DNA from: a bacterium
GTDB taxonomy: Bacteria; UBA10199; 2-02-FULL-44-16; JAAZCA01
DNA: 64,000 bases
Direction: 5' to 3'
Assembly: GCA_963674695.2 (NCBI GenBank)
Contig: CAXXGI010000003.1
Coordinates: forward strand, 128,001 to 192,000
Below, one piece after another: positions 623 through 52,854 of the stretch (positions are counted from its first letter, which is position 1; the number at the start of each line of letters is the position of its first letter). The notes beneath the pieces were generated by a model. It had not been told where the DNA came from. It did no database searches and saw only the letters and a list, made by a program, of their open reading frames with translations. Both the position numbers and the translations under genes were made by a program.

Positions 623-650
623 TTATCGGCGCTGCGCAAGAAAAGTTGTG
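623..650 (-). promoter_or_regulatory. sigma28/FliA-like promoter motif CACAAC-N14-GCCGATAA
   Basis: Reverse complement cacaac ttttcttgcgcagc gccgataa overlaps the ogt stop codon and points into ORF 194-598. Confidence 0.65.
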
Positions 651-1368: not shown

Positions 1369-1767
1369 ATGAAATCAAAGAGCGAATTGAGCGAGCATAT
1401 GGAGATCGTCGACGGCAACAGGCGCCAGAAGGGGCATTCCCCCCTCGAGCTCTGGGGCCGCATGCACCGTGGCGAGCGCAAGTCGCAGCGTGTCGAGCGC
1501 GCGCCCTTCGACAGCATGATGGCCGTCTTTGCCGATCGCGTGACCTATACGTTTATCCTCGAAAACGAGGTGGCATCGATTCATTTCGACCGCCGGCGCG
1601 GGGAGATCTTCTTTAAGGGCCATAATATCAGTAACATGGAGCTCACCCCCCCTCAACGCGAGGCCCTGATGCACATGGGCCAGATGCTCACGCGCGAAAC
1701 CCGCACGAAACCATTTTCTGCCGATTATGACGCAACTTTGGGTCGTCTCCTTGCCGATAATGAATAG
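1369..1767 (+). CDS. hypothetical protein (132 aa)
   Basis: ATG preceded by AAGGAG; GC3-biased ORF; no recognised domain. Confidence 0.7.
   Translation: MKSKSELSEHMEIVDGNRRQKGHSPLELWGRMHRGERKSQRVERAPFDSMMAVFADRVTYTFILENEVASIHFDRRRGEIFFKGHNISNMELTPPQREALMHMGQMLTRETRTKPFSADYDATLGRLLADNE
1731..1760 (+). promoter_or_regulatory. sigma28/FliA-like promoter motif CGCAAC-N16-GCCGATAA
   Basis: cgcaac tttgggtcgtctcctt gccgataa; spacer 2 nt longer than in most other copies; upstream of ORF 1929 with a MITE in between. Confidence 0.5.
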
Positions 1768-4923: not shown

Positions 4924-5302
4924 GAGTTGTCATCACACGCCCAACGATATCGAGGATGTCTTGCTTTCCGAACGGTTTCTGAAGCGCCTCGGCGAATCCG
5001 CCCGCCTCGACGAATTGCTCCTGCAGCGCTGTGGGATCCTGTTCGACCTGCCCGGTCATCATGATGCAGGTCGTCTGTGGCGCGATGGTGTGGAGGGCCC
5101 GACAGGTCTCGATGCCGCTCAAGCCCGGCATGATCAGGTCGATGAAGATGATGCGATACGCTTTCTCTCTCGCCCGTTCGATGGCGGCATGCCCATCGGG
5201 GACACACTCGACCTCGAACCCCTCATGCGTAAGGATCATCTGCATCGCGGAACTGACGATCTCGATATCGTCGACGATCAGGATTTGGTTTCCTGCTTCC
5301 AT
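4904..5302 (-). CDS. single-domain response regulator (receiver)
   Basis: ILIVDD, DLIMPGLSG, MMTG and KPF receiver motifs. Confidence 0.9.
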   Translation of the reverse strand: MEAGNQILIVDDIEIVSSAMQMILTHEGFEVECVPDGHAAIERAREKAYRIIFIDLIMPGLSGIETCRALHTIAPQTTCIMMTGQVEQDPTALQEQFVEAGGFAEALQKPFGKQDILDIVGRVMTTPMASGT

Positions 5303-9077: not shown

Positions 9078-9176
9078 AAGAAATACATCCCCCTGAAATG
9101 ATATTTCTATTATTGCGCACTTGGTGGTGGGGGTAAATGGAAATAATGGCGATGCGAAAAGGAGCGATGTGTGGCT

Positions 9177-11636
9177 TTAGAACGCGATGGCGGCGGGGAG
9201 CATGACCGCTGCCCCCATCATGCCCATGTCGATCGGAATTTGGGGGAAGGCATCGCCCATGGTCAGGGCGTCGTTGATCTCGATGCCTGCGTATACGAGC
9301 GATGTCATTGCATTAGCGGCAAACGCGTCCTCGATCTGGGTCTGCGGCGCATTGAGAAATCCCGGCGGTGTGCCGCCGCCCGCCGGCGGCATCGAAGAAC
9401 CCGGAGTTGTCGGTGGTGCGGAGTTTCCGCCGCCGTTGCGATCGCCGCTCTTCTTGATGGCCATTTTCGCCTTCAGGATCGGGGTGATGTCGATGGCGAT
9501 CGCTCGCGACGGTGTCCCCGGAAAGTCCATCTGGGAAAGGATTTCAGCCATGGCGCTGGGCATCACGACCCCATCGCGCAGGTGTTCGTCGCGAAACGGG
9601 GCCTCCTTGAGGGCCTGGATCAGAGTGATGACAAATCGATTTTTGAAGAGCCCTTCGATCTTTTGGAACCAGTCTTCCTGCTGGAGTTCCTGTGTGATCT
9701 GCTTCCAGGTGGGATAGAGCCAATTGGCATCATCCTTGCTGAAGTCCTGCCCGAGTTGCAGATAGCCGATCAGCTCCGGAAGGAGGTTGAGCAGGGTATG
9801 GCTCATGTGGAGGCGCGCGGTCGCGGTGGGGTCGCTCTGCATACGGCGGAGCACCCCTTCCAAATCCGGATTTCCACGAACAAACGGCTCCAAGAGCTTG
9901 AGCATCGGAACCTCTTCGAATGGCGTCGTGTAGATGGCGCGCGTCACGGATTCCTGGAAGTGGCTCGCTATGATCAGGGCCGACTCAATGACGCTTTCCT
10001 CCTCGGCTTCGATGGGCTGCGCGCTGCGCAGAAACGATGCGTTCTCGTGATAGATGGTGTCGAAAAGACCATCGTCGTGATCCCTGTTTTTCCGTGCGCT
10101 GAGGCGAATGAGTTCGAAGAGCCAGTCCTGGAGCATCGTAAACCCTTGCGGGGTGAGTGCGGCGAGTTGGGATATCGCCATCGGCCTTTCGGGATCGGCC
10201 GAGAGGTCATGATAGAGCTTGCACAGGCGCGCGAGAGTTTTATCGCTGTCTTCCTCGGGCGGCCTCGCGGCCATCGTTCGCGCCAGATCGATCTGCTCGA
10301 GGAGCGATTGGCGTGCCTCCACATAGTGCATCGCCATCTGCATATCGATCGCGCTGGTGTAGATCGTCGGGATCTGACCGAACTGTCGGGCCTCCGGATC
10401 GGTGAACCAATCGACCATCAGCTGGCGGTTGAGAAATGTTGTCCACTGAGCTTCATGCAGGAGATCCTCGTCGTCGGCGATCCTTCTGCCGAAGGGTTCG
10501 CCCTCTGTGCGAATGCGTTCTGCCGCGGCCTGAACATCCGATTCGAAGGCTTCACGCGTCTGTGCATCGAGATGCGCGACAAAGATGGCGATCTGATTAC
10601 TCCAGTATCCGCGCATGTCATCGATGAAGGTCGGAGGAATGCCCTGATAGAGTTCGTCGCCGAGCACATCTTCCATGGAGATGCGTTGATTGAAGTGAGC
10701 GAGCATATTCTGAAAGGGGCGGATCGATGCGATGACCGACTCGGGCGTTCGATCGGCAAATCCTTCCATCGACCCTTCGCCATCGAGGGCCATCTCGTGG
10801 GCATAGTCGATATAGCGCCCAATCCATGCCGTCCAGAGCTCGCCTTCGATGAAACGGGGAATGAACGCCTCATCGATGTCGCTCTCGGAGGAGGAGGCGT
10901 CCGTCGCTTGGTTGATCTCATGGGCGAGGCGTTTCTCCATCTCGGTGGCCCCCTCCCACCAGATCTCCGCCTGCCAGGCGATGGCTGCTTCAACGAGCGC
11001 TTCATCCTGCACCAAATCATCCGATTCGAAGGGGAATCCTGAGTCCGCGAGCGATTCGTATGAATCGGTGACAAGATTATCGAATTCGTCGAGGTCCTCT
11101 CCCTCGAGTTCATTGTGCATCGCCTCGGCCATGTCGGCCATGAAGGAGGAAAAATTAGTCAGGATTTCGTCGTTGATGTCGTCGCCCTCGAGCACGTCGG
11201 GATAGCGTTCGCCGTCGGCGATGCGGGTGCGCAAGCGATCGAGTCCCGGCAGGAGCGCGAGGTAGTATTCCTGTTCGTCGGCGGCGATGTCTTCGTCAGA
11301 GGCAGGATGCTCCCCCATCCAGACGATATCGACCGGTCCCTGTAGACGCGCCGCCAGGGGATGGCTCCACCCGGAAGGGGCGTCGACGATGATGCCGAGT
11401 TGAAGCCGCAGCGCATCGAGGAGGGAATGCCGCCCCGGGTCGAAGGCCTCGTAGAAGTCGGTAAAGAAGGTGACGCCGGCGCGCAGGATGGGGTCGTCGG
11501 GGTTATCCTGTGTGGCGCGGTCGAGTGCTGTAATCGCATCCATCGGGACGTCGAGGCGAACGCTCGCTCCTAAAAAAAATGCGGAAAAGCGTTGGCGAAA
11601 TTGATGGAGGAGATGCAGGGGAATCGGTTTGGTCAT
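9177..11636 (-). CDS. acidic hypothetical protein (819 aa) with Pro/Gly linker and C-terminal GAAVMLPAAIAF tag
   Basis: Long GC3-biased ORF with no signal peptide; the promoter motif lies 8 nt upstream of the ATG. Confidence 0.8.
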   Translation of the reverse strand: MTKPIPLHLLHQFRQRFSAFFLGASVRLDVPMDAITALDRATQDNPDDPILRAGVTFFTDFYEAFDPGRHSLLDALRLQLGIIVDAPSGWSHPLAARLQGPVDIVWMGEHPASDEDIAADEQEYYLALLPGLDRLRTRIADGERYPDVLEGDDINDEILTNFSSFMADMAEAMHNELEGEDLDEFDNLVTDSYESLADSGFPFESDDLVQDEALVEAAIAWQAEIWWEGATEMEKRLAHEINQATDASSSESDIDEAFIPRFIEGELWTAWIGRYIDYAHEMALDGEGSMEGFADRTPESVIASIRPFQNMLAHFNQRISMEDVLGDELYQGIPPTFIDDMRGYWSNQIAIFVAHLDAQTREAFESDVQAAAERIRTEGEPFGRRIADDEDLLHEAQWTTFLNRQLMVDWFTDPEARQFGQIPTIYTSAIDMQMAMHYVEARQSLLEQIDLARTMAARPPEEDSDKTLARLCKLYHDLSADPERPMAISQLAALTPQGFTMLQDWLFELIRLSARKNRDHDDGLFDTIYHENASFLRSAQPIEAEEESVIESALIIASHFQESVTRAIYTTPFEEVPMLKLLEPFVRGNPDLEGVLRRMQSDPTATARLHMSHTLLNLLPELIGYLQLGQDFSKDDANWLYPTWKQITQELQQEDWFQKIEGLFKNRFVITLIQALKEAPFRDEHLRDGVVMPSAMAEILSQMDFPGTPSRAIAIDITPILKAKMAIKKSGDRNGGGNSAPPTTPGSSMPPAGGGTPPGFLNAPQTQIEDAFAANAMTSLVYAGIEINDALTMGDAFPQIPIDMGMMGAAVMLPAAIAF

Positions 11637-11644
11637 GATCGGGG

Positions 11645-11672
11645 ATATCGGCGGTTGGACGAAAAGGTTGCG
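11645..11672 (-). promoter_or_regulatory. sigma28/FliA-like promoter motif CGCAAC-N14-GCCGATAT (leaderless geometry)
   Basis: Reverse complement cgcaac cttttcgtccaacc gccgatat ccccgatc ATG. Confidence 0.7.
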
Positions 11673-11815
11673 TGGTTTTTTGTGCGGAATTGTTACTGTA
11701 AGTGGCCGATATAAAAGGTATTTTCGAGTTTTGTCATTCCCGAGCGATTAAATCGGGAATCTCGATGGTCATGATGTGTCTGGATCTCGCAGATGACCGG
11801 CAAGAAACCAGCCTA

Positions 11816-12139
11816 TCAGCTTCCGCTGGCATTCTCCCACGAGACGAAGCGCCAGCCAAAAGAACCCTTTTCGAGTGTGGCGAAGATGCGCTGCACGGTT
11901 CCATCATCAAGGGTTAAGAAGGCATCGACCGAGACCAGGTGCTTATGAATCTCCTGCTGGCCGGTGACATCGACCTCGTTCACCGTGGAGGACCCGTAGA
12001 TCGTTTCGGGGTATTTCTTGCCGTATTTCTTGAAGTATTTCTGGATGAGTTTCGTGCTGCGCTGTTCGCTCGGCTGCCGGGCGCAGGCGGTGACACCGAA
12101 GAGGACGAGGATCAGGGCGATGGCGAAGAGGCGTTTCAT
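11816..12139 (-). CDS. small lipoprotein, unknown function
   Basis: MKRLFAIALILVLFGVTAC signal peptide with lipobox. Confidence 0.75.
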   Translation of the reverse strand: MKRLFAIALILVLFGVTACARQPSEQRSTKLIQKYFKKYGKKYPETIYGSSTVNEVDVTGQQEIHKHLVSVDAFLTLDDGTVQRIFATLEKGSFGWRFVSWENASGS

Positions 12140-12231
12140 ATGGGCGAAGTCGCTAACATGGCGATAGGGTGAGCGCAAGGGTCTTTGTGGGGGTGTTCGG
12201 GGGGGCTAGGGCGTGTCGGGATCCTTGGTTT

Positions 12232-12345
12232 TTGTCATCCCCTTGGTTTTTGTCATCCCCGCGAAGGCGGGGATCTCGATTGACCATTATAAGCGAGATT
12301 CCCCCGCCACACAATCGGCGGGCAGGCTGCGTTCGCGGGAATGAC
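12232..12345. repeat. REP palindrome cluster (dRS3-like)
   Basis: tgtcatccccgcgaaggcggggatctcg followed by an interrupted inverted copy ending ttcgcgggaatgac. Confidence 0.8.
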
Positions 12346-12368
12346 ACCCTCTGAAATGACGACATGTC

Positions 12369-14135
12369 TTACTCAAACGGGATCTTGATCACCTGTCCGC
12401 GACGCGGACGGCGGCCCACGCCGGGGTTGGCCGAGCGAATCTGGTCGACCTCCACCCGATACATCTGGGCGATGGAGAAGATCGTTTCATTGCGCCCGAC
12501 CTTGTGGGTGAGTGCACCGCGTGTGCTCTTCGGCGCACGCGAGGCCGCGGCCGCGAAGAGCGTTCCCTTGCCCTTCGGAACGCGAAGCGGATAGCCGATG
12601 GGGACCAGTTGCTTTCCCTCGATCACCGAGGCGCGCAGGCTCAAGTTGAGCTCGATGATCTCCTCCATCGGGATGCGGGCGATGCGGGCGACGTCCGGCA
12701 GGGAGATGTGATAGTCCAGGCGCGTCAGGTCGTAGCGAAGGGGCTCGTCGTAGGCAATCGGGCCGAAGTGTTCTTGGGTGTGCTCGGCCACATCGAGCGC
12801 GGCGAGGAATTCGGGAACGAAGTTGCGCGAGGCAAAGCCGTAGCTGCGGTGTTCGAAGTTCTTGATGATGTGCGCGATGTCGTTCGTGCCGTGGCGTTTG
12901 ACCGCCTGCTGCATGCGGCCGCGCCCGGTGTTATAGGCGTTGAGCGCTAAGGGCCAGGTGCCCAGCTCGTTTTCGTTGTGGCGCAAGAGCTTTGCCGCTC
13001 CGTGCGTCGCGGCGATCGGGTCATAGCGTTCATCGACCAAGGTGTTGATATTGAGATACAGCTTTCCGGTTGAACGCATGAACTGCCACAACCCCGTCGC
13101 GCCCACCGAGCTTCCCGCCCGCGGGTTGAACATCGATTCCACGAAGATGAGCCGGGTGAGTTCGCGGGGGAGTCCATACTCCTCGGTGAAGATGCGCTCG
13201 ATCTCGCCGAGCCACTGTCCGGAATAGATGAGCCCGGCGATGAATTTATCGCGTTGCCCGTATTGCGCACGCACACCGTCGTCGAGCGCGGCGCGCCGAA
13301 AGGCGTTTTTTTCATGCACGTTGGTGAAGAGCTTGCGGATGCGCCATTCCTCCTCGGTGAGCGATGAGGCCGACGGACGTTTCGAGAGCTTCATCAGCGT
13401 TTCGCTGACTTCGTCGCGGCGCTCATCGAGGCGTTTTTTTCGCCGGTGCGATTTCTCCAGATCGGTGAGCCGCACATCCCGCGTGATGTCGCTCACATCG
13501 ACCACGTCATAGACGATATCGAGATAGCGCGGGTGGTGCAGCACGATGTGATCGTTGTCGTACGTCCCGTAGATGTCGCGCCAGAAATTGACCTCGGCGG
13601 TCAGCGTGTCAGGCGGAAAGATCCACGCCTTGTGTCGGCGGCTGCTGTTGCTGTCGAGTGCGCTGGGCTCACCCCGTGCCAGGCTCGAGACGGGGTGGAC
13701 CACATGCGTGATGGCATGATCGCCGACCAGAAGCGTGTCGTCGCCGAGGAGTTCGCGCGCGAGCGCATCGTCGGCGTTGGCGTCATCCGATTCCAGTGCT
13801 GCGGTCTCCTCGTTCGGCATGCGGTCCGCGTCGGATTGATCGCCGGAACGGTGTCCGGCCCAGGCCAACTCATCCGGCTTCACACCCTTGGGGATAAATT
13901 GGGCGATGGTTCCGCTATGTGCAGGAAGGGGAGCTGTTTTTTGTGTCTCCTCCGGTTCCTCCGTGGGGAGGATGGCCGAGAGCCGCGGAGGTTGGGGAAG
14001 TTTCGGGTCGATCGCCTCCGGGCTTAACCCGGCGATGCGTCCCGGCAGCACGATCAGGGCGAAGCAGATAAACCCCGCCGCCAGACAGACCACGAGCAGG
14101 GCGTTGATGATGCGCTGTTCACGCGATCCGGTCAT
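12369..14135 (-). CDS. lytic transglycosylase (SLT domain plus C-terminal LysM), MltD-like
   Basis: N-terminal TM anchor, VESMFNP (catalytic Glu), GATGLWQFM, AYNTG, and C-terminal LysM HKVGRNETIFSIA. Confidence 0.88.
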   Translation of the reverse strand: MTGSREQRIINALLVVCLAAGFICFALIVLPGRIAGLSPEAIDPKLPQPPRLSAILPTEEPEETQKTAPLPAHSGTIAQFIPKGVKPDELAWAGHRSGDQSDADRMPNEETAALESDDANADDALARELLGDDTLLVGDHAITHVVHPVSSLARGEPSALDSNSSRRHKAWIFPPDTLTAEVNFWRDIYGTYDNDHIVLHHPRYLDIVYDVVDVSDITRDVRLTDLEKSHRRKKRLDERRDEVSETLMKLSKRPSASSLTEEEWRIRKLFTNVHEKNAFRRAALDDGVRAQYGQRDKFIAGLIYSGQWLGEIERIFTEEYGLPRELTRLIFVESMFNPRAGSSVGATGLWQFMRSTGKLYLNINTLVDERYDPIAATHGAAKLLRHNENELGTWPLALNAYNTGRGRMQQAVKRHGTNDIAHIIKNFEHRSYGFASRNFVPEFLAALDVAEHTQEHFGPIAYDEPLRYDLTRLDYHISLPDVARIARIPMEEIIELNLSLRASVIEGKQLVPIGYPLRVPKGKGTLFAAAASRAPKSTRGALTHKVGRNETIFSIAQMYRVEVDQIRSANPGVGRRPRRGQVIKIPFE

Positions 14136-17464: not shown

Positions 17465-17700
17465 CTGTCATCCCCGTGAAAACGGGGATCTCGATGGACT
17501 TGGCTCTGTCATCCCCGTGAAAACGGGGATCTCGATGGACTTGGCTCTGTCATCCCCGTGAAAACGGGGATCTCGATGGACTTGGCACTGTCATCCCCGT
17601 GAAAACGGGGATCTCGATGGACTTGGCTCTGTCATCCCCGTGAAAACGGGGATCTCGATGTACCGTGAGAATCGAGATTTCCGCCTTCGCGGGAATGACA
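17465..17700. repeat. tandem array of five 41-bp REP units ending in an inverted REP
   Basis: ctgtcatccccgtgaaaacggggatctcgatggacttggct at 17465, 17506, 17547, 17588 and (partial) 17629; linkers near-identical. Confidence 0.9.
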
Positions 17701-18653: not shown

Positions 18654-18693
18654 CGGCCGTGACACGTAACACGTAACACGATGGACTCGGAAG

Positions 18694-18827
18694 TGTCATC
18701 CCCGTGAAAACGGGGATCTCGATGGATTCGGAAGTGTCATCCTCGTGCAAACGGGGATCTCGATGTGCCGTGAGAATCGAGATTCCCGCCTTCGCGGGAA
18801 TGACAGGCTTGGGTTCGCGGGAATGAC
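18694..18827. repeat. REP cluster between the permease genes
   Basis: Two gtcatcc(c/t)cgtg.aaacggggatctcgatg units plus inverted ...cgcgggaatgac units. Confidence 0.8.
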
Positions 18828-19658: not shown

Positions 19659-19794
19659 GGGCCGTAACACGTGATCAGAACGGTTCATCTGTTTTGTCTG
19701 TCACTCCCGAGGCCCCCTTGCCTGTGGGGTAATCGGGGATCCAGCCCGTTGTTGTCATCCTCGCGAAAGCGGGGATCTCGATGGGTTGTGAAAG

Positions 19795-19867
19795 TCGAGA
19801 TTCCCGCCTTCGCGGGAATGACACCCCTTGGTTTTGTCATCCCGAGCGGAGCCGAGGGATCCCTTGT
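19795..19867 (+). repeat. 73-bp direct repeat (composite REP), left copy flanking the giant sigma gene
   Basis: 71/73 identical to 22767-22839. Confidence 0.85.
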
Positions 19868-19885
19868 GAAGTGACACTTTTTTTG

Positions 19886-19913
19886 CGCAACTTTTTCCTC
19901 GTCGATGCGATAA
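19886..19913 (+). promoter_or_regulatory. sigma28/FliA-like promoter motif CGCAAC-N14-TGCGATAA (leaderless geometry)
   Basis: cgcaac tttttcctcgtcga tgcgataa ctgagca ATG(19921); no Shine-Dalgarno. Confidence 0.65.
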
Positions 19914-19920
19914 CTGAGCA

Positions 19921-22692
19921 ATGGTTTATGCACCCGCCCCCACAACACTCGCTTCTCGCATGCACGCGATGGACGCCTTTCTCTCGAGCGCGGATGCGTA
20001 TGCCTTCGACCAGTCCTGGAGTGCGGTGGAAGAGGTCGTGCTCGCGCCCTTCGGTATCGAGACCGATGCCTTCGTTTCCCCCGTCTCGGATGATGTCGTC
20101 GATCGCGATCGCTTGAAGGCGCAGGTCGTGCGCGCCGTTCGTCCCGAGTTCGATAGCCGCATCGCTGGCATCGTCGAGGCGCGCGAACCGCTCGATCTCG
20201 ACCGTCTGTATCACCACGGTTTTGCCGGACCCTCGCACGCGGTCTTCTCGGCCGATCATGCCTATGCTGGGCGGTGGCTCTCCTTCGATCCGGCCAAGAG
20301 CATGATCGCTTCCGTGCTCATGCTGACGAAGAACATTCCTCCGCTCTATGCAGACCTCCTTCAGCGATGGGGGACGAGAGGACTCGATGGATTTCGTTCG
20401 ACCCATCACCCGATCGATGAGCTGCGCATTCAACACGAGATCGATCGGCTGCGGGCGATGCCGCGCCCCTTCGCCGAACGGACGCTGCGATACGTCTCGC
20501 CCCATACGCTTGCGCGCATCATCGAGCAGCTCGCCCAGGGCTTGGGCCTCGTCCATCCGCGTCAACTGAGTGGAGAAGATTTCAAAGTGAAGCTCCCCGG
20601 ATGGCGAACGGCCTGCCAAGGGCTCTACAAATATGGACTCAAGCTCGCTTCCGAAGAGGAGGGATCGCAGCAGGCGATCGACTGCCTGCTCGATCATCTC
20701 GACATGCAGCGGCTCGATGGGCTTCCCTTTCTGGATCAGGTGCGCATCCTGCGCATGCGTTCCTCGCGCATCTATTGGGATCGCGTGCCGCGGGGCCTCA
20801 AGCGCTATCTCATCGAGCGGCTCGCCACAGAGGCGGGCGTCGTCCATCCGCGCTTTCTGACGGCGCCGCAGATGATCAAGGTCGAGATCCCCGAACTCGG
20901 GTCAACGCTCTACACGCTCTACGACAACATGCTCAAGCGCACCACTGAACATGGGCGTGCGGTCGAAGCCCTCCTCGATGAACTGGGATTCGATTCCATT
21001 GAAGACCTCGATTGGGAGGTGCAGCTCAAGGGATTCAAGGAGCGCAGTCTGGTGCACTGGGGCGTCGTGCCCACATCGACGCAGCGAAAACTCTTGGAGG
21101 TGGCGCGTGCGCGCATGCCGAAACAGAACGGCATGGAGTGCCCGCACCTGCGGGCGTTGACCAGCGACCAGCTTAAGCGGAGCGTGATCGAAGAGATCGA
21201 CGTCGCCCTCGGCGGCTTGCACGAACACTATCGCGTCCGCGTGCCGGAAGGATATGCGGGGACGACCATCGATTGCATGCTCGATGAACTCGGCGTGCCG
21301 GCCTTTGCCGATCTCTCCTACGAGGAGCAGTGCCGTTGTCTGCGCTACGACAAAAGCTGGCCCTGGGATCGGGTGCCCAAATCGACGATACGGGAGATGA
21401 TCGAGCGGATTCAGAAACGTCATGATCTTCCCCATATTCGATATGTCACCCCCGAACACCTGAGAACGACGATCCTCCCCGAGATCGACCAATCCATCGG
21501 TGGCCTCTATACTCATTTTCAGCTGCGGCAGAACGTGACCGATCATCGGCCGGTCATGGACCTGATCTTCGATCATATCGGTGTGGAACCATTCGAAGAT
21601 ATGCCCTTTGACCTGCAGTTGGAATGGATGAACCATTCGGCCGGGCGCGCGTGGCGAGATATTCCCGATGCGATCATTCACCATCACCTTCGGGCGCTGA
21701 TGCGGACGAGTGGCGTTGCGGAACCCGGCGATCTGCTGACGAGTCATTTCGGTCGTCCGGTGCTGACGCGACAGGCCGGGATGCTGGGCCTGCTCACCTA
21801 TCTGAACCATGTGTGGAAAGACTCCGATCGCAGCGAGCGCGTCATCGACTGGGCCGCCCGCCGCTATGGGCTCCATACCCAGATGGGGATCGACGCCAAG
21901 TTTCGACAGGGGGGGCAGCTGCTCCAGTTGGATGAGACGCAGCATTTGATTCAGATGGCAAGGGTGGGCGATCGGCGCGCGCAGGAGCAACTCATCATCT
22001 TCTTCCATCCGCTCATCAAGAAGTTTGCGGCGGCCACGCTCAGCCGACAATCCCATTCCCGCCTGGGATTCGATGATCTGGTGCAGCTCGGGCGCCTGGA
22101 GCTCATGCAGTTGGCCAAGCTCTATGACCCAACACGAGGGGCCAAGTTTACGACCTATGTCTATTCATCGCTCCCCTGGCGCATGATGAATGCCGTGAAG
22201 CGCGACACCGGCGTGATCCATCGTCCGGCGCATTATCTGGCGGCTGCGGCAAAGCTCTTCAAAAAGCGTGCGCAATTGATTCAGGAATTCGGGGTTGAGC
22301 CGAGCGATGAGGAGCTGGCCCAGGCGCTCGGATGGACGCTCGATGAGGTGAAAGAGATTTTCCGCCATGCCTCGCGGGAGGTCTCGATTCACTCGCCCGT
22401 GGGCGAGGACGATTCGACGCTCGAGGACTTTATCCCGGATACGGCCAATGATATCGAAGCCTCGTTCGAGAATCGCAACCTGCAGTCACAGCTGCATGTG
22501 GCCATCGAGGGGTCGGGGTTGAATGAACGAGAACGCTTCTGTCTGCGAAAATATCACCTGGAGGGTCACACGCTTGAGGAGGTGGGCCAGATGTGGGGAG
22601 TCACCCGCGAGCGCATCCGGCAGATCGTGGTGAAGGCCATGCAAAAAATCGCGAACGGTCCCTATGCCAAGGCCTTGAAGGAGTTGTTATAG
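19921..22692 (+). CDS. giant sigma70-family protein (923 aa): five ~96-aa N-terminal tandem repeats plus sigma regions 2, 3 and 4
   Basis: C-terminal ~260 aa contain DDLVQLG, YDPTRGAKFTTY, EPSDEELAQAL, SIHSPVGEDDSTLEDFIPD and TLEEVGQMWGVTRERIRQI; repeats are visible by eye. Confidence 0.88.
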   Translation: MVYAPAPTTLASRMHAMDAFLSSADAYAFDQSWSAVEEVVLAPFGIETDAFVSPVSDDVVDRDRLKAQVVRAVRPEFDSRIAGIVEAREPLDLDRLYHHGFAGPSHAVFSADHAYAGRWLSFDPAKSMIASVLMLTKNIPPLYADLLQRWGTRGLDGFRSTHHPIDELRIQHEIDRLRAMPRPFAERTLRYVSPHTLARIIEQLAQGLGLVHPRQLSGEDFKVKLPGWRTACQGLYKYGLKLASEEEGSQQAIDCLLDHLDMQRLDGLPFLDQVRILRMRSSRIYWDRVPRGLKRYLIERLATEAGVVHPRFLTAPQMIKVEIPELGSTLYTLYDNMLKRTTEHGRAVEALLDELGFDSIEDLDWEVQLKGFKERSLVHWGVVPTSTQRKLLEVARARMPKQNGMECPHLRALTSDQLKRSVIEEIDVALGGLHEHYRVRVPEGYAGTTIDCMLDELGVPAFADLSYEEQCRCLRYDKSWPWDRVPKSTIREMIERIQKRHDLPHIRYVTPEHLRTTILPEIDQSIGGLYTHFQLRQNVTDHRPVMDLIFDHIGVEPFEDMPFDLQLEWMNHSAGRAWRDIPDAIIHHHLRALMRTSGVAEPGDLLTSHFGRPVLTRQAGMLGLLTYLNHVWKDSDRSERVIDWAARRYGLHTQMGIDAKFRQGGQLLQLDETQHLIQMARVGDRRAQEQLIIFFHPLIKKFAAATLSRQSHSRLGFDDLVQLGRLELMQLAKLYDPTRGAKFTTYVYSSLPWRMMNAVKRDTGVIHRPAHYLAAAAKLFKKRAQLIQEFGVEPSDEELAQALGWTLDEVKEIFRHASREVSIHSPVGEDDSTLEDFIPDTANDIEASFENRNLQSQLHVAIEGSGLNERERFCLRKYHLEGHTLEEVGQMWGVTRERIRQIVVKAMQKIANGPYAKALKELL

Positions 22693-22766
22693 GCGGTCAC
22701 CCCCGAATCTCTCCTTGTTTGTCATCCCTGAGTGGGGTAATCGGGGATCTCGATTGCTTATGAAAT

Positions 22767-22839
22767 TCGAGATTCCCGCCTTCGCGGGAATGACACCCCT
22801 TGGTTTTGTCATCCCGAGCGGAGTCGAGGGATCTCTTGT
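22767..22839 (+). repeat. 73-bp direct repeat (composite REP), right copy
   Basis: 71/73 identical to 19795-19867. Confidence 0.85.
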
Positions 22840-22855
22840 TCTCGAAGGAGTTTCT

Positions 22856-23911
22856 ATGTCACTCGGACAACTGTTAATGATCGGTTTCGACGGCACGACG
22901 GTTTCACCGGAACTCGCTGCGCTTATGCGCGACGTGCAGCCGGGCGGCGTGATCCTCTTTGCGCGCAATTGCGAGAGTCCCGAACAGGTGCGCACCCTCA
23001 TCGCCGACCTCACCGATGCGGCCGAGGCACCGTTGATCGTCGGCGTCGACCAGGAGGGCGGGCGTGTGGCGCGGTTGAAAGCTCCCTTCACCGAGCTGCC
23101 ACCGATGAACCGCATCGCGCGTGCCGGGAGCGATGCGCGCGAACTCGCGCGCGAGGTCGGCGCGATGCTGGCGCGCGAACTCGCTGCGGTCGGCTTTACG
23201 CTCGACTTCGCCCCCGTGCTCGACGTGAACACCAATGCACAAAACCCCGTCATCAACGACCGCGCCTTCTCCGCCGATGCACAGGTGGTCGCGCGACTCG
23301 GCTGCGCCTTCATCGAGGGCATGCAGGGAGAAGGGGTTGCCGCCTGTGGCAAGCACTTCCCGGGACACGGCGATACCACCATCGATTCGCACAAAGGCCT
23401 GCCGCGCGTCGAACATGCGCGCGAGCGCCTCGGTTCCACCGAACTCGTGCCCTTTCGTGCTGCCATCGCGGCCAGCGTCGCCTCCCTCATGACCGCACAC
23501 CTGCTCGTCACCGCGTATGATGAGCAGGATCTCGCCACGACATCGAGTGCCATCACGACCGGTCTCTTGCGTAAGGCCCTCGGTTTTGAGGGGCTCGTCT
23601 TCACCGACGACCTCATCATGCGCGGCATCGCCGACCGCTACGGAACGGAGGAATCCGCCTGGCGCGCCATCGCCGCCGGCGCCGACGTGGCGCTCGTCTG
23701 CGAGGGCGAGACGAACGTGCGCCAAGCACTCGATGGACTCGCGCGCGCCCTCGACGACGGCAAACTCGATGGCGAACACATCGCCGCATCGCGCGTGCGC
23801 ATCGCACGCTTCACCGACCGCTTCTGCAACCCAAACCGCATGCGTCCCCCCATGACCATCATCGGCTGCCCCGAACACCAAACCCTCGCAAAACGCCTGC
23901 ACGAGCTGTAA
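22856..23911 (+). CDS. nagZ: beta-N-acetylhexosaminidase (GH3)
   Basis: VDQEGGRVARL, FAPVLD, KHFPGHGDTTIDSH, MTAH and TDDL motifs; AAGGAG RBS before MSLGQ. Confidence 0.93.
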   Translation: MSLGQLLMIGFDGTTVSPELAALMRDVQPGGVILFARNCESPEQVRTLIADLTDAAEAPLIVGVDQEGGRVARLKAPFTELPPMNRIARAGSDARELAREVGAMLARELAAVGFTLDFAPVLDVNTNAQNPVINDRAFSADAQVVARLGCAFIEGMQGEGVAACGKHFPGHGDTTIDSHKGLPRVEHARERLGSTELVPFRAAIAASVASLMTAHLLVTAYDEQDLATTSSAITTGLLRKALGFEGLVFTDDLIMRGIADRYGTEESAWRAIAAGADVALVCEGETNVRQALDGLARALDDGKLDGEHIAASRVRIARFTDRFCNPNRMRPPMTIIGCPEHQTLAKRLHEL

Positions 23912-24717: not shown

Positions 24718-25884
24718 ATGACGAAGGTTGGTTCACATCATGCGGATGGCTGGCAGAAAAAGACCGGTCAGAAGCAGATCCACGAGCAGGGCCAGAAACA
24801 GGTCCGCACGGATGTGAAGCTCTCGGCCAAGCAGACCTCTCAGGCCCTGGCCCGTGAGCTGCACCAGCCCAAGTCGACCGACGGGGCCAGCCGCATGCGC
24901 GAGCAGGCGCAGCCGCAGTCCGGGCGCGATGTGTCGCAGCCGATGCAGAAGCAGCGCGGCGAGATGCAGCAGAAGGCCGCCAACGCGCAGACCAAGGAGT
25001 TTGTCGGCGCCAAGCGCGATGCGCAGCAGCTCTCGAACCTCGTCAAGTCGCCGGCCAAGGGCGCGGCCACGAAGGATGCGGTGGCACAGAAGGGGGTCGC
25101 CAGCGAGCCGAACCTGGGCAAGCAGAATGCCGGTACGAAGAATCAGCCGCAGGTCCTGCAGAAGAACGTGAACCAGGCGGTGCGCCAGCAGTCACAGCAG
25201 GTCGCGGCCAAGCATGTGGTCACGCAGCACAAGGCGCGCGCGACGACGCCGCAGGCCAAGACGACCAAGCAGGCCAAACAGGCCAAACAATTGACCGAAC
25301 AGCCCAAGCCCGATGGCGCGCAACAGGCGCGCTATGCCCCACGCGCAGCAGCGCAGGCGGGACAAGCCGGAAAGATGGGGCAACAGGACGGGCAGGGCGC
25401 GGTCAAGCAGCGCAGCGCAAGCAAAGGGGAGAAGAAGAAGGGCGAGAAAAAATCGAGTGCTTCGCGCGGCAGGGGGGCATCGGCGACCGGCGCCGAGCGG
25501 GCCGGGGCGCAACGCGACCTGGGCGCGCTCCTCGGTGGCGGTGGTTTTGGGGGCGACGGCGACGAGGGGTTTGAATCCTTTAGCGGCAATGCCTCCATCG
25601 AGGGCGATGGCGTCGAAGGATCCAAGGGCCTGCCCGAGTCCGATCCGGCCTCACCGGTCTTTAACGAGCCGTCAGCTGGCGACGCCGTCATGGGACGCGC
25701 GCGTCTCTACGGCCGCCTCGTGGAAAAGCGCATCCAGGAGATCGCGCAGCTCAACGACGAGATCGAGACCAAAATTAAAACCATGTTCGAGACGACGCCG
25801 CTTCGCGAACGCATCGTTTCGGAATGTGAAACCTTGAGCCAAGCCGTCGTGCTCGGCTCCTACAAGGATATCCGTTATGGGTAA
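24718..25884 (+). CDS. Q/K/A-rich low-complexity hypothetical protein with C-terminal coiled coil
   Basis: GAGGAG RBS; strongly GC3-biased 388-aa ORF; overlaps the next gene by 8 nt. Confidence 0.8.
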   Translation: MTKVGSHHADGWQKKTGQKQIHEQGQKQVRTDVKLSAKQTSQALARELHQPKSTDGASRMREQAQPQSGRDVSQPMQKQRGEMQQKAANAQTKEFVGAKRDAQQLSNLVKSPAKGAATKDAVAQKGVASEPNLGKQNAGTKNQPQVLQKNVNQAVRQQSQQVAAKHVVTQHKARATTPQAKTTKQAKQAKQLTEQPKPDGAQQARYAPRAAAQAGQAGKMGQQDGQGAVKQRSASKGEKKKGEKKSSASRGRGASATGAERAGAQRDLGALLGGGGFGGDGDEGFESFSGNASIEGDGVEGSKGLPESDPASPVFNEPSAGDAVMGRARLYGRLVEKRIQEIAQLNDEIETKIKTMFETTPLRERIVSECETLSQAVVLGSYKDIRYG

Positions 25885-28800
25885 TAATCCGCTGGGTATT
25901 AACAATTTTCAGCTCAGGCCCTTCGAGGAGTCGCTGAGGAATACGCTCTACGGCGAGAAGGCGAAGGCCAACACCCCTTCCGAAGAGAGCAATGGTTTCG
26001 ACTGCTCCGGATCGCGCGCGTTTTTGCAGAACATGGGTATCATGGGCGGGCAGAACTTTCAGATGAACGGCCTGCACGGTCAGGATCCTTCGAACGAATG
26101 GTTCCCGGGACGAAAAGGGCAGCAGCAGCTTCCCGGCGGTGCCGGCATCATGGGTGCGAACGTCTTCGGCAACATGGGCATGCCCAACTACGCGCAGGCC
26201 TTCCTCGGCGGTCAGGGCGGCAATGCGCTCATGTCCGGCGGGATGATGGCCGGTGGCCTCGGCGCACCGCAAATTATCCAGACGCCGATGCCGCAGCCCG
26301 CGCAGGGGAGCATCACGCCTCAGCCCTCCTCCCTCAATTTCACGGCGAAGGAGGCCGACCCCGAGGATGAGAAAGACGCCAAGGCGCTCGAGGATGCGCG
26401 CAATGCCTACGCCGATCTGCAGAAGGACTGGGAGCGTCGCGCGGGCGATAAGGATGAGTACGGCTATTCCGGTGATGAGGCCAAGGAGTTCGTGGAGCGT
26501 GCCGCCGGTGCGGCGCTCGAGCGCGCCCAGAAGATCGTCGGCGACGGCGACGAAAAGGCGCTCATCATCCAGCAGCACAAGATCTTCGACGGCATCATGA
26601 AAAAACTGCCGAGTTTCACGCTGCCCGAACCGAGTGCGGAACAGGTGGCCGCTTGGGAGAAGGATGGGCTTGATGTGGAGGCCGAGACAACGAAGATGCA
26701 GGATGCGCACAGGGAGGAATGGACCACCGACTTGACCAAGTGGGAGGTCGAGCAGATTGAGGACTACAACGCCATCGACGGCAACAAAGCCGTGAAAGCC
26801 GTCCGCCAGAGCGCAATGGATCCGGACACGAGCGTGAAGAAGAAGGCGGAGCCGATTGAGGTGGAGGTAAAACGGAGCAAAGGATGGGGCAAGAAGGTGA
26901 GCGAACCATCCTATATCATTACGAAGGCGCCGGAGGGTTCGGGGCTTAAAGGAGGAGACTATGTCTTCTACAAGGCTGATGGGACCTGGGTCAAAGCATC
27001 GAGTAATGACAGTACAACAGCAAGGATTGGAACCGAGATCGAGGTGCTCAAAGATTCTCCGAAACCGTCAACAGATCCGAATGCAACGGCTACACTGAAA
27101 ATGGAAGGCCCCGAAGAAGAGGCCGCCGACACCAACACGGATTCCTACTTCGACGTTGAGTATGCGGGAGTGCGAGAGATCGTGGTGGAGGAAGGTGGCA
27201 AGAAACGCACGGTGCAGGCCGAGGTCTACACCGTGACGGGTGGAATGCTTGCGTCGGGGAAACCTGTTGATCCGAAATCGGTGAATGATGAGGTCTATAA
27301 GGTGGATGGGAAGTGGTATGCAGATCCTGTAACTCGTCCGGATGTGAATACGATCAAACCGTTCTCCGAGTCCGATCCGGATTCCCCCACGCCCAAACAC
27401 GCCGCCAACGAGGGTCGCCTCTACTTCAACCGCGCCTCCGCACGCCACCTCCCCGAGGGCGCCATGTACAAGGACGTGCGCGGCCACATCGACACCGCCC
27501 TCCAAGGTCTCGAAAAGGAAGCCGCCGAAAAGAAAAAGATCCGCCAGGACCGTTACAAGGTCTTCGAGGAACAGTTCAAGGAGTCCCTGCCTGAGGATGT
27601 GCAAGACCTCGTCACCGTCAAGATGGATGACGACGGCACCGTCCAAATCACCTGCTCGCCCGAACACGCAGCGCAGGTCCACACGGCGATGAAACGCGAG
27701 GGTGAAGTGGATGCGCTCGAAAAGATGACATGTACACTCACAAAGGATGGCAAGCCGGATGGTGTGGTGACGAAGTACATATTGAGTCCCGTCCCCAGCA
27801 GTGGTCCGTTGGAGGGCACGAAGTACCTCTATTATGATACAGAAAGTGAAGCGTGGTTTACGGATGCAGATGCGTTACTTGATGTTGCTGACCTGGATGT
27901 AAAGATTCCGAAGATGGGGGAGGAAGCAAAGACCTCTGTCTCCTTTGATGTCGACACAAAGGGAGAGACACTCAAGCCCGTCGATAACAAAAAGATGAAA
28001 TCCGCCTTCGCGGCTCTTCCGGACAAGACGCCCGTTCGCTTCAACGACGAGCTGATGACTCCGGGTGCCGATCCCAAGGCGGCGCTTGCCAAGGAGGCGC
28101 ACGAAGCGCCCCGGGTGATTCATATTGATAGTGAGGCGATGGATAGTGGGTTGAAGGCTGCGAAGAAACCAGATGCAATTGGGAAGGTACTCGCGTTAGC
28201 TGTTGATGATGCAAAAGGCGACGCAAAAAACCTCGAGAGCATCAACCTCGGCACGATCGCACTCCCCACGAAGAAGGACGGGGGTGTGATCACGCAGAGC
28301 GAGTTTGAGGGGATCATCGCCAAGATCGCGAAGGAACACGACATCAATCCTTCGCAGGTGAAATATACGATCAAGGACAAAACTGCCTTCAAGAAGGCGG
28401 AGGCACCCACTGGTGAGATGCTCACCACCAGTGGCGCTGATTTCGGCGATGGCGTGAAGGTCGACTGGAAGCTCCCTGTTGAAACGCAGAAGGCGTTTGA
28501 GAAGGATTATGGAAAGATACAGAAGGACGCCGATGCGCGGTTTAAGGAGATGAAGGCCGATGCGAAGAACCCGAGCCCCGAAAAAATCGTCGAGCTGAAA
28601 AAGCGCGCGACCGTCGAAGCGATCACGATGTGGGCCTACACCTATGCCAAGGAGCGCGGATGGGAAGGACATGAAGACAACGAGGGCGAAGCGCTCTCCC
28701 TCTATGATAACCTGAGTTCCGACAAACCCCTGGGCGAATGCACCGAGCGCACCGCGTTTCTCTATGCCCTCATGAAGCACGCGCAGGAGGAAGGTGTGTT

Positions 28801-29347
28801 ACAGAAAGATCTCGAGGGGGTAGACTTCAAATTCGCCAACGTGACGCGTGTGAATACACAGCTCGCCGTGCACAAAGACGCCAAGCACGTCGCACTCGTG
28901 GCCACAGGTGCGGGTGATGATATGCTCTGCGATATCGCGACACCCTACAAGACGGGCTGGGGTCTGGGCAGTCCGGATGTGACGCCCGATGGACATACGC
29001 TTGATAAGAAGAATCCGACGATGTCGGCCGGTGAGTTTGCTGCAGTTCAGCTCTACAACAAGGCCCTCATCGCACAGGCCAAAGGGGAGGACCCTGCCGA
29101 GGTGGAGCGCTATCACCGCATGGCCCATGCCCTGTCTCCGGATATCGTTCCGGAGGATATGCCCGGCTCCGACAAGAAGGCCGCAGCGGCGATCACCAAC
29201 GGCGTCAGCGATGTCGACGACGATGCCGATGCATCGGCATCGAAGAAGAAACCATCCGCCGCCGAAAGCGACCGCATCCCCGCACCCCCGGGCTTTCAAT
29301 ACAACGACGCCGGCCAACTCATAAAAATCCGCCGCCTCGACGTCTAG
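25877..29347 (+). CDS. large hypothetical protein (1156 aa) with a C-terminal transglutaminase-like Cys-His-Asp domain
   Basis: G/M/Q-rich N-terminus; GECTERTAFLYAL...HVALV...LCDIA near the C-terminus followed by a TPR-like helix pair; domain call is from motif resemblance only. Confidence 0.72.
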   Translation: MGNNPLGINNFQLRPFEESLRNTLYGEKAKANTPSEESNGFDCSGSRAFLQNMGIMGGQNFQMNGLHGQDPSNEWFPGRKGQQQLPGGAGIMGANVFGNMGMPNYAQAFLGGQGGNALMSGGMMAGGLGAPQIIQTPMPQPAQGSITPQPSSLNFTAKEADPEDEKDAKALEDARNAYADLQKDWERRAGDKDEYGYSGDEAKEFVERAAGAALERAQKIVGDGDEKALIIQQHKIFDGIMKKLPSFTLPEPSAEQVAAWEKDGLDVEAETTKMQDAHREEWTTDLTKWEVEQIEDYNAIDGNKAVKAVRQSAMDPDTSVKKKAEPIEVEVKRSKGWGKKVSEPSYIITKAPEGSGLKGGDYVFYKADGTWVKASSNDSTTARIGTEIEVLKDSPKPSTDPNATATLKMEGPEEEAADTNTDSYFDVEYAGVREIVVEEGGKKRTVQAEVYTVTGGMLASGKPVDPKSVNDEVYKVDGKWYADPVTRPDVNTIKPFSESDPDSPTPKHAANEGRLYFNRASARHLPEGAMYKDVRGHIDTALQGLEKEAAEKKKIRQDRYKVFEEQFKESLPEDVQDLVTVKMDDDGTVQITCSPEHAAQVHTAMKREGEVDALEKMTCTLTKDGKPDGVVTKYILSPVPSSGPLEGTKYLYYDTESEAWFTDADALLDVADLDVKIPKMGEEAKTSVSFDVDTKGETLKPVDNKKMKSAFAALPDKTPVRFNDELMTPGADPKAALAKEAHEAPRVIHIDSEAMDSGLKAAKKPDAIGKVLALAVDDAKGDAKNLESINLGTIALPTKKDGGVITQSEFEGIIAKIAKEHDINPSQVKYTIKDKTAFKKAEAPTGEMLTTSGADFGDGVKVDWKLPVETQKAFEKDYGKIQKDADARFKEMKADAKNPSPEKIVELKKRATVEAITMWAYTYAKERGWEGHEDNEGEALSLYDNLSSDKPLGECTERTAFLYALMKHAQEEGVLQKDLEGVDFKFANVTRVNTQLAVHKDAKHVALVATGAGDDMLCDIATPYKTGWGLGSPDVTPDGHTLDKKNPTMSAGEFAAVQLYNKALIAQAKGEDPAEVERYHRMAHALSPDIVPEDMPGSDKKAAAAITNGVSDVDDDADASASKKKPSAAESDRIPAPPGFQYNDAGQLIKIRRLDV

Positions 29348-29535: not shown

Positions 29536-29581
29536 TAACCCGTTGATTTACAAGGGTGTGTGCATTGGCCTGTTTCTTGCT
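29536..29581 (+). promoter_or_regulatory. IHF-consensus site plus sigma54 promoter upstream of the transposase
   Basis: Minus strand AATCAACGGGTTA (29536-29548) matches WATCAAN4TTR; TGGCCTGTTTCTTGCT at 29566-29581 matches -24/-12. Confidence 0.6.
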
Positions 29582-29609
29582 TTTGTCAGCGCGTATGAAA
29601 GGAGGAGGG

Positions 29610-30281
29610 ATGAAGACTATCGAAGAGAAGGGAGAGACCATACACTATCATGTGATTGCGCGGTGTAACAACCGAAGGAGGCGACTGAAGGGGAAGAAGG
29701 ACTGCTATCGGTTCCTTGCGTATCTCAAGGAATACATGTCGAAATACAGTGTCATCATTCATGAATACGTGATCATGCCGTCGCATGTACATATGATTCT
29801 CCAGGTCTTATCGGAGGAGCGCCTCGCCGCGTACATGCATGATGTCTGTCTCGCTTTTTCGCGGTTTTATAACCGAAATCATAATCGAAGGGGACACTTC
29901 TGGAAAAGGCCGTTTTGGCGTCGGCCTATATTGGATGATCGATATGCCATCTGTTGTCTCCGCTATCTTCATCGCAATCCTTTGGTCGCGGGCTTAATCG
30001 GGAAAGCCGAGGATTGGCCGTGGAGCGCGTGTGCAACCTATACGCGGGGAAGATCTAATAAGCTCATTGAGCTTCATCCTTCTTACGGTTTGTTTGGAGG
30101 CACGTTGGAGGAGCGACGGGCGTCGTGGAGAGACATTTTGGCATCGGATCACATTCCCATCGAAGCGGAAAGGATGGTCTTTGATGGACGTGTCAAAACA
30201 GGATCACGAAGATACCGCGCTGCCTATAACGTGGTGACAACAGCGATGATGACGCATCTCTTTCAACGAACGTATCGGTGA
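29610..30281 (+). mobile_element. REP-associated tyrosine (HUH/Y1) transposase, RAYT
   Basis: YHVIARCNN, IMPSHVHM (HUH), GHFW, RYLHRNPLVAGL and WPWS motifs; lower GC; GGAGGAGG RBS; flanked by its own hairpin repeats. Confidence 0.9.
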
Positions 30282-35246: not shown

Positions 35247-35261
35247 AATTTGCTCGCGTGA

Positions 35262-35380
35262 TCGTGAGATGGTGAGATGGCTCAATCGCGAGATAGCCAA
35301 ATAGCAATTATACGATTTTGCCGTTAAGCCATCTCACCATCTCACCATTCAGCCATCTCACCAGTTTGCCATCTCACCAG
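35262..35380. repeat. inverted arrays of an 8-mer (GGTGAGAT / ATCTCACC)
   Basis: gtgagatggtgagatggct ... agccatctcaccatctcaccattcagccatctcacc. Confidence 0.75.
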
Positions 35381-39673: not shown

Positions 39674-39712
39674 GCATGAAAACACATGCGGCACGTTGAT
39701 CTTCTCTTATAT

Positions 39713-52825: not shown

Positions 52826-52854
52826 GGCAACTTTCATGTGCGCGCTGTCGATAA
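52826..52854 (+). promoter_or_regulatory. sigma28/FliA-like promoter motif GGCAAC-N15-GTCGATAA
   Basis: ggcaac tttcatgtgcgcgct gtcgataa, 30 nt upstream of ORF 52885. Confidence 0.55.

Follow-up and report, generated by a model that had tools for sequence, protein, structure and literature searches.

The window analyzed here, a stretch of 64,000 nucleotides, covers positions 128,001 to 192,000 of the forward strand of contig CAXXGI010000003.1 (assembly GCA_963674695.2; GTDB lineage Bacteria; UBA10199; 2-02-FULL-44-16; JAAZCA01), from a genome of 3.03 Mb in three contigs that is rated 100% complete. It codes for a real but rare bacterial sigma-70-family protein, hereafter the repeat sigma, whose long arm repeats an undescribed helical domain five times. 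The usual control of sigma factors is exerted in trans, by anti-sigma proteins, and long structured N-terminal arms built from a private repeat lie, to our knowledge, outside the textbook picture of these proteins; we found no description of such a sigma in the open-access literature searched. The gene and the parts of its product are as follows, in coordinates of the window.

19921..22692, plus strand: coding sequence of 923 amino acids, open for 923 codons from its ATG (stop codon included in the coordinates)
19921..20415, plus strand: N-terminal helical head, residues 1-165, non-repetitive and of no known family
20416..20715, plus strand: repeat R1, residues 166-265, 60.2 bits against the family profile
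20716..21000, plus strand: repeat R2, residues 266-360, 82.9 bits against the family profile
21001..21306, plus strand: repeat R3, residues 361-462, 81.7 bits against the family profile, modeled together with R4
21307..21594, plus strand: repeat R4, residues 463-558, 97.6 bits against the family profile, modeled together with R3
21595..21876, plus strand: repeat R5, residues 559-652, 51.1 bits against the family profile, the most divergent unit, adjoining the sigma module
21877..22008, plus strand: linker and region-1.2-like helices, residues 653-696; the NCBIfam RpoD model NF006666 aligns from residue 666, and the modeled helices span residues 670-682 and 685-709
22009..22185, plus strand: sigma region 2, residues 697-755, Pfam Sigma70_r2 (PF04542), 28.2 bits against a cut-off of 24
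22261..22449, plus strand: sigma region 3, residues 781-843, Pfam Sigma70_r3, 59.5 bits against a cut-off of 25.3
22516..22650, plus strand: sigma region 4, residues 866-910, Pfam Sigma70_r4 (PF04545), 55.1 bits against a cut-off of 24.1
22603-22626, plus strand: region 4.2 motif TRERIRQI, residues 895-902, within region 4

A public protein collection lists the same product as a 910-residue protein that starts 13 codons further 3'. We prefer the ATG at 19921 and the 923-residue reading because L10, which lies ahead of the 910-residue start, is invariant in an alignment across seven close homologs. Six full-length homologs share 40-45% identity with the repeat sigma and keep the same order of head, repeats and sigma module; one member of the homolog set (P0005) is 877 residues long.

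The first-pass annotation, made from the sequence alone, had described five novel tandem repeats of about 96 residues starting at 20416, 20716, 21001, 21307 and 21595, and both their register and their novelty withstand closer analysis. In local alignments against 200 shuffles, all six pairs among R1-R4 give z scores of 4.2 to 27.3, whereas R5 is weak in such comparisons, reaching only 1.2 to 2.3 against R1-R4. A hidden Markov model built from R2-R4 alone recovers R1 with 21.7 bits and places R5 exactly in register at residue 559, at the weak score of 2.5 bits (E 0.009 for one sequence). With the profile iterated over the homologs, all five units score 51 to 98 bits; this profile has absorbed R5-type units of other proteins, so that the R5 score is not fully independent. 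Columns W19, L46, L63, G65-L66-Y67 and G91 of the repeat are conserved, and the five units of the sigma protein conform to the family profile. The units are 14-32% identical to R4, and Tandem Repeats Finder detects no DNA-level repeat inside the gene, which together indicate that the duplication is old; self-BLAST of the protein returns the identity match only.

No Pfam family accounts for this part of the protein, the head and repeat region giving nothing better than E 0.1, and a profile of six repeat units searched against PDB sequences reaches a best E of 0.035. Likeness of the repeat to the C-terminal domain of the RNA polymerase α subunit or to a sigma domain was considered and rejected, with an hhalign probability of 1.5% each against the genome's own α domain and the sigma module. 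The head matches no Pfam family at E <= 5 and, compared with the repeats as a possible sixth unit, yields z scores of -1.2 to 1.1 (local alignment against shuffles). It is helical in the full-length model, with a predicted local distance difference test (pLDDT) mostly of 53-85 per block; sigma fusions of 731-802 residues begin at the repeats, without a head.

The full-length AlphaFold model has a mean pLDDT of 79.6 and a predicted template modeling score (pTM) of 0.51. A model of R3-R4 alone, built with 23 aligned sequences, reaches a pLDDT of 94.7 and a pTM of 0.87, and in it each unit is formed of five helices with a small β hairpin between helices 3 and 4, the two units making up one body. 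Hence, neighboring repeat units are predicted to pack on each other. The check by AlphaFold and Foldseek that had been proposed for the repeat thus returns a confident fold with no recognizable relative: the two-repeat model has a best Foldseek E of 0.30 against the PDB, with no match at E <= 0.001, a best E of 0.66 against the viral structures of BFVD, and no usable match in the ESM Atlas, and VIA-align finds nothing at Z >= 5 among 48,161 chains (best Z 4.6, SauUSI, over 52 residues). Foldseek with the full-length model retrieves sigma factors only. About 20 of 50 weak VIA-align rows are TetR-type DNA-binding domains placed on model residues ~121-198, the last four helices of a unit (Z 2.4-3.3), and superposition of the repeat on helix-turn-helix or winged-helix domains (TetR N-terminal, LOTUS) gives Z 2.4-3.3 over 49-63 residues; by VIA-align's own notes, Z values below 5 are common for helical models. 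These rows are a hint, and no more, that the repeat may hold a helix-turn-helix-like core. The net charge of the five units is -5 in the sigma protein, -5 to +4 in its close family, and +10 to +21 in several shorter sigma and helicase fusions.

Searched as the only query against 1.84 billion representatives, the repeat region finds 39 proteins at E <= 0.001, and the iterated profile recognizes 209 units in 43 of 48 proteins scanned. Other fusions, for which the first-pass annotation had suggested a search, do occur: 19 of the 43 repeat proteins carry a sigma module (18 by the sigma profile with Pfam and NCBIfam, plus P0043 with a region 4 of the extracytoplasmic function (ECF) type), and five carry a superfamily 1 (SF1) helicase core (AAA_11/AAA_12). 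One further protein, P0031, is 6142 residues long and has 18 units in two blocks (residues 1642-2414 and 4218-5165). The remaining 18 have no recognized partner; some of them come from short contigs, and one (P0039) ends in a weakly sigma-like tail (E 6e-4). A metagenome scan seeded on the helicase motifs brought up mostly generic helicases and a single repeat-bearing locus (L071), which lies among housekeeping genes.

In the sigma fusions the array is of fixed design. In all eight five-repeat sigma fusions compared, the best partner of each of R1-R5 is the unit at the same position, at about twice the second-best score, a correspondence that is absent in the helicase and other forms. The sigma arm is thus an ancient array of five fixed units, each with a conserved surface particular to it, rather than one that has been expanding recently. 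Among 93 genomes of the phylum the repeat occurs in six, all in two families of one order, and always with exactly five units per sigma gene. One of them has tandem paralogs at 7388-10135 and 10132-12900 of locus L014 (G018:C31), whose stop and start codons overlap; of this pair, P0003 has region 3 and P0008 is without it. By their source labels, one sigma fusion belongs to Candidatus Margulisiibacteriota and one helicase fusion to Candidatus Saganbacteria, and a relative of the window protein (L018) comes from a metagenome-assembled genome labeled "Bdellovibrio sp." No gene is conserved beside the repeat sigma across genera, and no relatives of it were found in viral contigs.

Sigma regions 2-4 follow the repeats as first annotated, all three scoring above their Pfam gathering thresholds, and together with the region-1.2-like helices before them they form a complete sigma module of ~260 residues at the C-terminus. 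Likewise, the absence of any similarity to region 1.1 or to the non-essential region holds, in that region 1.1 (PF03979), region 1.2 (PF00140) and the non-essential region have no Pfam match at E <= 1; a region-1.2-like helix may nevertheless exist, given that the RpoD model aligns from residue 666. Over residues 683-921 the protein is 36% identical to the genome's own RpoD, and their alignment lets one recognize region 2.2, which binds the core enzyme, region 3.0, the finger of region 3.2, and region 4. Region 4.2, read as RpoD-like from the outset, is in fact identical to that of the genome's RpoD over VTRERIRQI. The only NCBIfam model to score above its cut-off is the superfamily model TIGR02937 (74.2 bits against 42.9). 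Below their cut-offs, the models rank as RpoD (124.6 and 124 bits), RpoS (105.8), FliA (100.5), the FliA/WhiG model TIGR02479 (93.2) and MzaA (89.4), the cut-offs being 572 and, for TIGR02393, 354 for the two RpoD models, 378.7 for RpoS and 189.6 for TIGR02479. Regions 2 and 4 place the protein in the sigma-70 family and, judged by these scores, its module is closest to the RpoD-type sigmas and lies outside every curated subfamily. Of the 18 sigma fusions recognized by the sigma profile, nine match it in one piece, eight in two pieces without region 3, and one in region 4 only; region 3 is dispensable in the family.

The repeat sigma can be set beside several known groups. With RpoD/SigA (groups 1 and 2) it shares the best NCBIfam scores, the identity across regions 2-4, the identical region 4.2 and recognizable regions 3.0 and 3.2, but it falls far short of their cut-offs (354-572 bits), has no detected region 1.1 or non-essential region, and carries SS in place of the tryptophan dyad. 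Like FliA/WhiG (sigma-28) and other group 3 sigmas, it possesses regions 2, 3 and 4 without region 1.1 and has no tryptophan dyad; however, its 93.2 bits on TIGR02479 stay below 189.6, another protein of the genome is its FliA/WhiG-like sigma (132.5 bits), and FliA has no 650-residue arm. The MzaA sigma of the MZA anti-phage system is likewise a long protein that ends in a sigma-70 module (the repeat sigma scores 89.4 bits on NF041931 and 47.7 bits on the PADLOC MzaA profile). Here only the sigma part is aligned (positions 449-657 of 683 in the PADLOC profile), the cut-off of 800 bits is far off, and the neighbors in the window are ABC-transporter permease genes on one side and a GH3 hydrolase gene on the other, not a defense locus (the neighbors were not scanned against PADLOC). 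Since NF041931 gives 316.6 bits to a fragment of the RpoD of this genome, the resemblance to MzaA is generic. The favored functional analogy is with ECF sigmas that have fused regulatory domains, such as the SnoaL_2-fused SigJ, in which, according to part of one account (PMC5766207), the added domain may modulate either activity or the recognition of promoters. The extensions of such sigmas are single domains of known fold, placed C-terminally on sigma2-sigma4 proteins, whereas in the repeat sigma a sigma2-3-4 module is preceded by five units of an undescribed domain.

Region 2.3 of the repeat sigma reads FTTYVYSSLPWRM (residues 743-755, containing YSSLPW) where the genome's own RpoD has FSTYATWWIRQAI, and the alignment of the two confirms that the tryptophan dyad, W433/W434 of Escherichia coli sigma-70, is replaced by SS at residues S749/S750 (nucleotides 22165-22170). 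S750 is invariant in seven close homologs; position 749 is S in five of the seven, and V and R in the other two. Seven proteins of the genome match sigma-70-family region 2, namely RpoD, an RpoH-like sigma, a FliA/WhiG-like sigma of about 300 residues, three ECF-size sigmas and the repeat sigma, and only the first two of these have WW. At the dyad positions the FliA/WhiG-like sigma has YY and the three ECF sigmas have other residues. A portion of one study (PMC6411747) states that group 2 sigmas share the melting residues of group 1, that group 3 sigmas do not conserve theirs, and that ECF sigmas initiate without the dyad at stringent promoters, probably compensating through near-consensus promoters. 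Given this, and the absence of the dyad from the FliA/WhiG-like and ECF sigmas of the genome, the missing dyad marks an alternative sigma rather than a dead one.

Upstream of the gene lies a promoter-like site of a class that recurs in the window, with the form CAACTTT(T)-N-(G/C)CGATAA.

19888..19913, plus strand: sigma-28-type promoter-like site CAACTTTT-N10-TGCGATAA (in full CAACTTTTTCCTCGTCGATGCGATAA), ending 7 nt before the ATG of the repeat sigma gene, one of 56 sites in the genome
11645-11670, minus strand: site of the same class
52828-52854, plus strand: site of the same class
1733-1760, plus strand: site of the same class
623-648, minus strand: site of the same class
151-176, minus strand: site of the same class

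The pattern CAAC[CT]?TTT-N10-17-CGATA[AT] is matched at 56 places in the genome, base-shuffled genomes giving 0.4, and at 51 of the 56 an open reading frame (ORF) of at least 80 residues starts within 200 nt. Leaving out the repeat sigma gene, 50 downstream ORFs were scanned, and for 45 of them Pfam yields no family at E <= 1e-5, which bears out the earlier suggestion of a promoter common to orphan genes; the other five contain DnaJ+PilZ, GH77, HEAT repeats, alpha-amylase and SLT. The -10 half of this class is the sigma-28 motif, and part of a study of Bdellovibrio bacteriovorus (PMC3627812) reports TTAAG-N16-CCGATA in 92 of 140 attack-phase promoters and assigns it to FliA. We infer that the site at 19888..19913 works as a promoter; its -10 element ends so close to the start codon that the mRNA would be leaderless or nearly so. 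A scan for consensus sigma-70 promoters upstream of the gene found nothing, and the 28 nt directly 5' of the ATG are unique in the window. Each of the 41 related genomes searched has 3 to 55 sites of a stricter pattern, CAACTTT-N11-14-CGATAA (0-3 in the reversed control), whereas the repeat sigma occurs in only six of the same 41, which argues that another sigma reads the class. A FliA/WhiG-like sigma of about 300 residues is found in 38 of the 41 (118-144 bits, under the cut-off of 189.6), and that of this genome is encoded at G000:C3:8698-9330 (plus strand). The most likely reader of the promoter class is this FliA/WhiG-like sigma, which would count the repeat sigma among its targets in this genome. 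As a separate observation, a FliA/WhiG-like match of 59.9 bits in one related genome (G027:C4:136042-136671, minus strand) falls inside an open frame of 5646 residues.

Taking these features together, we propose, with a probability of about 0.6, that the protein is a working second-tier alternative sigma of a small and rare family and that its arm gates or tethers it. A repeat-regulated or repeat-targeted sigma is the most plausible family of readings, with a putative ligand for the arm. Transcription would start from the sigma-28-type promoter that ends 7 nt ahead of the ATG, and the mRNA may be leaderless. This promoter would be read not by the repeat sigma itself but by the FliA/WhiG-like sigma found across the class, which is what would make the repeat sigma second-tier, and the protein would be made together with the products of about 50 mostly orphan genes. 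Regions 2 and 4 are predicted to be its contacts with core RNA polymerase, and without the tryptophan wedge it would probably open only near-consensus promoters. The five-repeat arm would be a binding platform for protein or nucleic acid, which would either keep the sigma inactive until it encounters a partner, or anchor the holoenzyme at some site or partner. SF1 helicases recruited the repeat too, so the platform's place of action is probably DNA or RNA polymerase, or their immediate vicinity.

Several points weigh against this proposal. SS is more extreme than the aromatic or hydrophobic residues found at the dyad of the genome's other alternative sigmas, and region 3 is absent in eight of the 17 sigma fusions with a classifiable tail. 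The recognition helix of region 4.2 varies among the orthologs, which could mean relaxed constraint. The strict promoter motif is upstream of none of the six ortholog genes in the relatives, three of which have only -10-like TCG(T/C)ATAA strings upstream (judged by eye), and sigma-28-type control may therefore be particular to this genome. Core binding, promoter opening and the target promoters are predictions, and the full-length model, at a pTM of 0.51, does not predict where the arm sits relative to the sigma module. As no fold match is significant, it is the architecture that suggests a platform, and the partner of the arm is putative. Finally, the near-zero arm charge in the clade does not favor DNA binding by this protein.

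Within the proposal of a working alternative sigma, the arm may, as a tentative possibility, be a portable module for gating or tethering, with sigma factors and SF1 helicases alike under its control. In a narrower form of the same proposal, the arm would fold in cis onto regions 2 and 4 and keep the sigma off the core enzyme or off DNA until a ligand or protein binds it, with region 1.1 of the primary sigmas and the fused domains of some ECF sigmas as analogs. This would fit the fixed five-unit architecture with its position-specific conservation in eight of eight five-repeat sigma fusions, the conservation among orthologs of R5 despite its being the most divergent unit, the joining of R5 to the region-1.2-like helices through a stretch with a block pLDDT of 76-88, and the lack of a conserved anti-sigma-like neighbor across genera. 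However, the repeat also precedes SF1 helicases, so that its basic role is not sigma-specific, the arm is not acidic, unlike region 1.1, and the full-length model (pTM 0.51) offers no confident contact between arm and sigma module; we regard such a gate as possible but rather on the unlikely side.

In another version, the units would be helix-turn-helix-like and the array would bind DNA upstream of the promoter, or their substrate in the case of the helicases, adding affinity or specificity in the manner of an UP-element contact. In its favor, the two recurrent fusion partners both work on nucleic acids, TetR-type domains make up about 20 of the 50 weak structural rows, the arrays of several sigma and helicase fusions have a net charge of +10 to +21, and 35-66% of the units have a basic residue at columns 12, 21, 44 and 71-73 of the profile. 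Yet every structural Z lies below 5, in the range common for helical models, the array of this protein has a net charge of -5, and hhalign gives 1.5% for the repeat profile against either the sigma module or the α C-terminal domain. The position-specific conservation of the units also argues against a periodic, backbone-type ligand, and an arm that tracks nucleic acid is in our judgment doubtful.

The first-pass annotation also considered a melting-deficient decoy, a protein that binds core polymerase, cannot open promoters and so titrates the enzyme. Its appeal lies in the SS that replaces WW within a module otherwise closest to RpoD-type sigmas, in the invariance of S750 in seven of seven close homologs, and in the severe loss of activity that dyad substitutions cause in primary sigmas, as given in part of PMC6411747. 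Against it, four of the six other sigma-70-family proteins of the genome, the FliA/WhiG-like sigma and the three ECF sigmas, are also without the dyad, and the same part of that study describes group 3 melting residues as not conserved and ECF sigmas as working without the dyad. Moreover, the SS pair stands between the aromatic residues Y748 and W753, and the protein retains regions 3.0, 3.2 and 4.2, none of which a pure decoy would need. Hence, the missing dyad does not bear out the decoy, which we consider improbable.

A further suggestion had been that the protein acts on the RNA polymerase of another cell: it would be made with the ~50 orphan proteins and delivered into a target bacterium, where it redirects the polymerase, with the arm serving for delivery or docking. 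What makes an exported sigma thinkable is the sigma-28-like orphan regulon together with a non-flagellar type III system. The export gate of this genome (G000:C1:140946-142997, minus strand) scores 793.7 bits on the hrcV model, above its cut-off of 692.25, but 683.1 bits on the FlhA model, below its cut-off of 772.1. The genome has no match to the flagellin and rod/hook families, the only flagellar match being one of 23.7 bits to FliG_C. Among the 41 related genomes the gate is present in 40, in 37 of them above the cut-off, and in ten the FliA/WhiG-like sigma is encoded on the contig of the gate at a distance of 8-18 kb. It thus seems that in this lineage a sigma-28-like orphan regulon is coupled to a type III system of the non-flagellar kind, and the regulon may belong to that system. 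The promoter common to about 50 mostly orphan ORFs, the injectisome-type gate without a flagellin or rod match, and a region 4.2 identical to the consensus stretch carried by the genome's own RpoD would all accord with an exported sigma. However, nothing points to export of the repeat sigma, the strict promoter motif is at none of its six orthologs, sigma fusions of the same architecture are labeled as another phylum, and the gene is in six of the 41 related genomes against 40 for the gate. Known injectisomes, moreover, target eukaryotic cells, in which a bacterial sigma has no polymerase to bind. The suggestion is unsupported, and we consider it very improbable.

An assembly chimera of a repeat gene and a sigma gene, which had been named as a way for the annotation to fail, has next to no probability and is refuted by homologs from independent assemblies that share the head-repeats-sigma architecture; one unitig of run X1 covers 19822-22796 and one contig of run X2 covers 21625-22796, both reading through the repeat-sigma junction with zero differences, and, as these runs may be the source sample, it is the independent homologs that carry the argument for a real gene.

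The surroundings of the gene are rich in palindromic elements resembling repetitive extragenic palindromes (REP). Those of the GTCATCCCCGTGAAAACGGGGATC type occur in many intergenic regions (17465-17660, 18679-18765, 19730-19870 and 22732-22830), lie on both sides of the sigma gene and include 41-bp tandem arrays of 4.8 and 2.1 copies. They interrupt assembly unitigs and, when translated, give rise to false N-terminal extensions on ORFs, as at 22715-23911. The 90 nt 5' of the sigma gene hold such elements, which recur throughout the window, and one of them 3' of the stop codon contains the following candidate.

22797..22840, plus strand: terminator-like hairpin with a T-rich tail, a candidate only, as terminator-like sites in the scan are no commoner than in shuffles

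Elsewhere, the window is rich in large ORFs (388-1256 residues) with no Pfam family at E <= 1e-5, at 9177-11636 (minus), 24718-25884 (plus), 25877-29347 (plus), 33495-35300 (minus), 35381-39151 (minus) and 39686-43051 (plus); one Pfam-less ORF of the window codes for a Q/K/A-rich protein of 388 residues. There is an IS200-like transposase at 29556-30281, and a 1257-residue protein encoded at 5304-9077 (minus) unites CheB methylesterase, CheR methyltransferase, PAS and histidine kinase ATPase domains and adjoins a single-domain response regulator.

The repeat adds a new portable domain, with a confidently predicted fold and no recognizable relative, that has been attached to both sigma modules and SF1 helicases. 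Its fusion to both points to a common way of steering machines bound to DNA or to polymerase. The conserved SS in place of the tryptophan wedge, in a module that is otherwise RpoD-like, bears on how promoters may be opened without the dyad. Finally, the promoter class would give the repeat sigma a place in a regulatory cascade, and gives the orphans among its roughly 50 genes in this genome their first common context.

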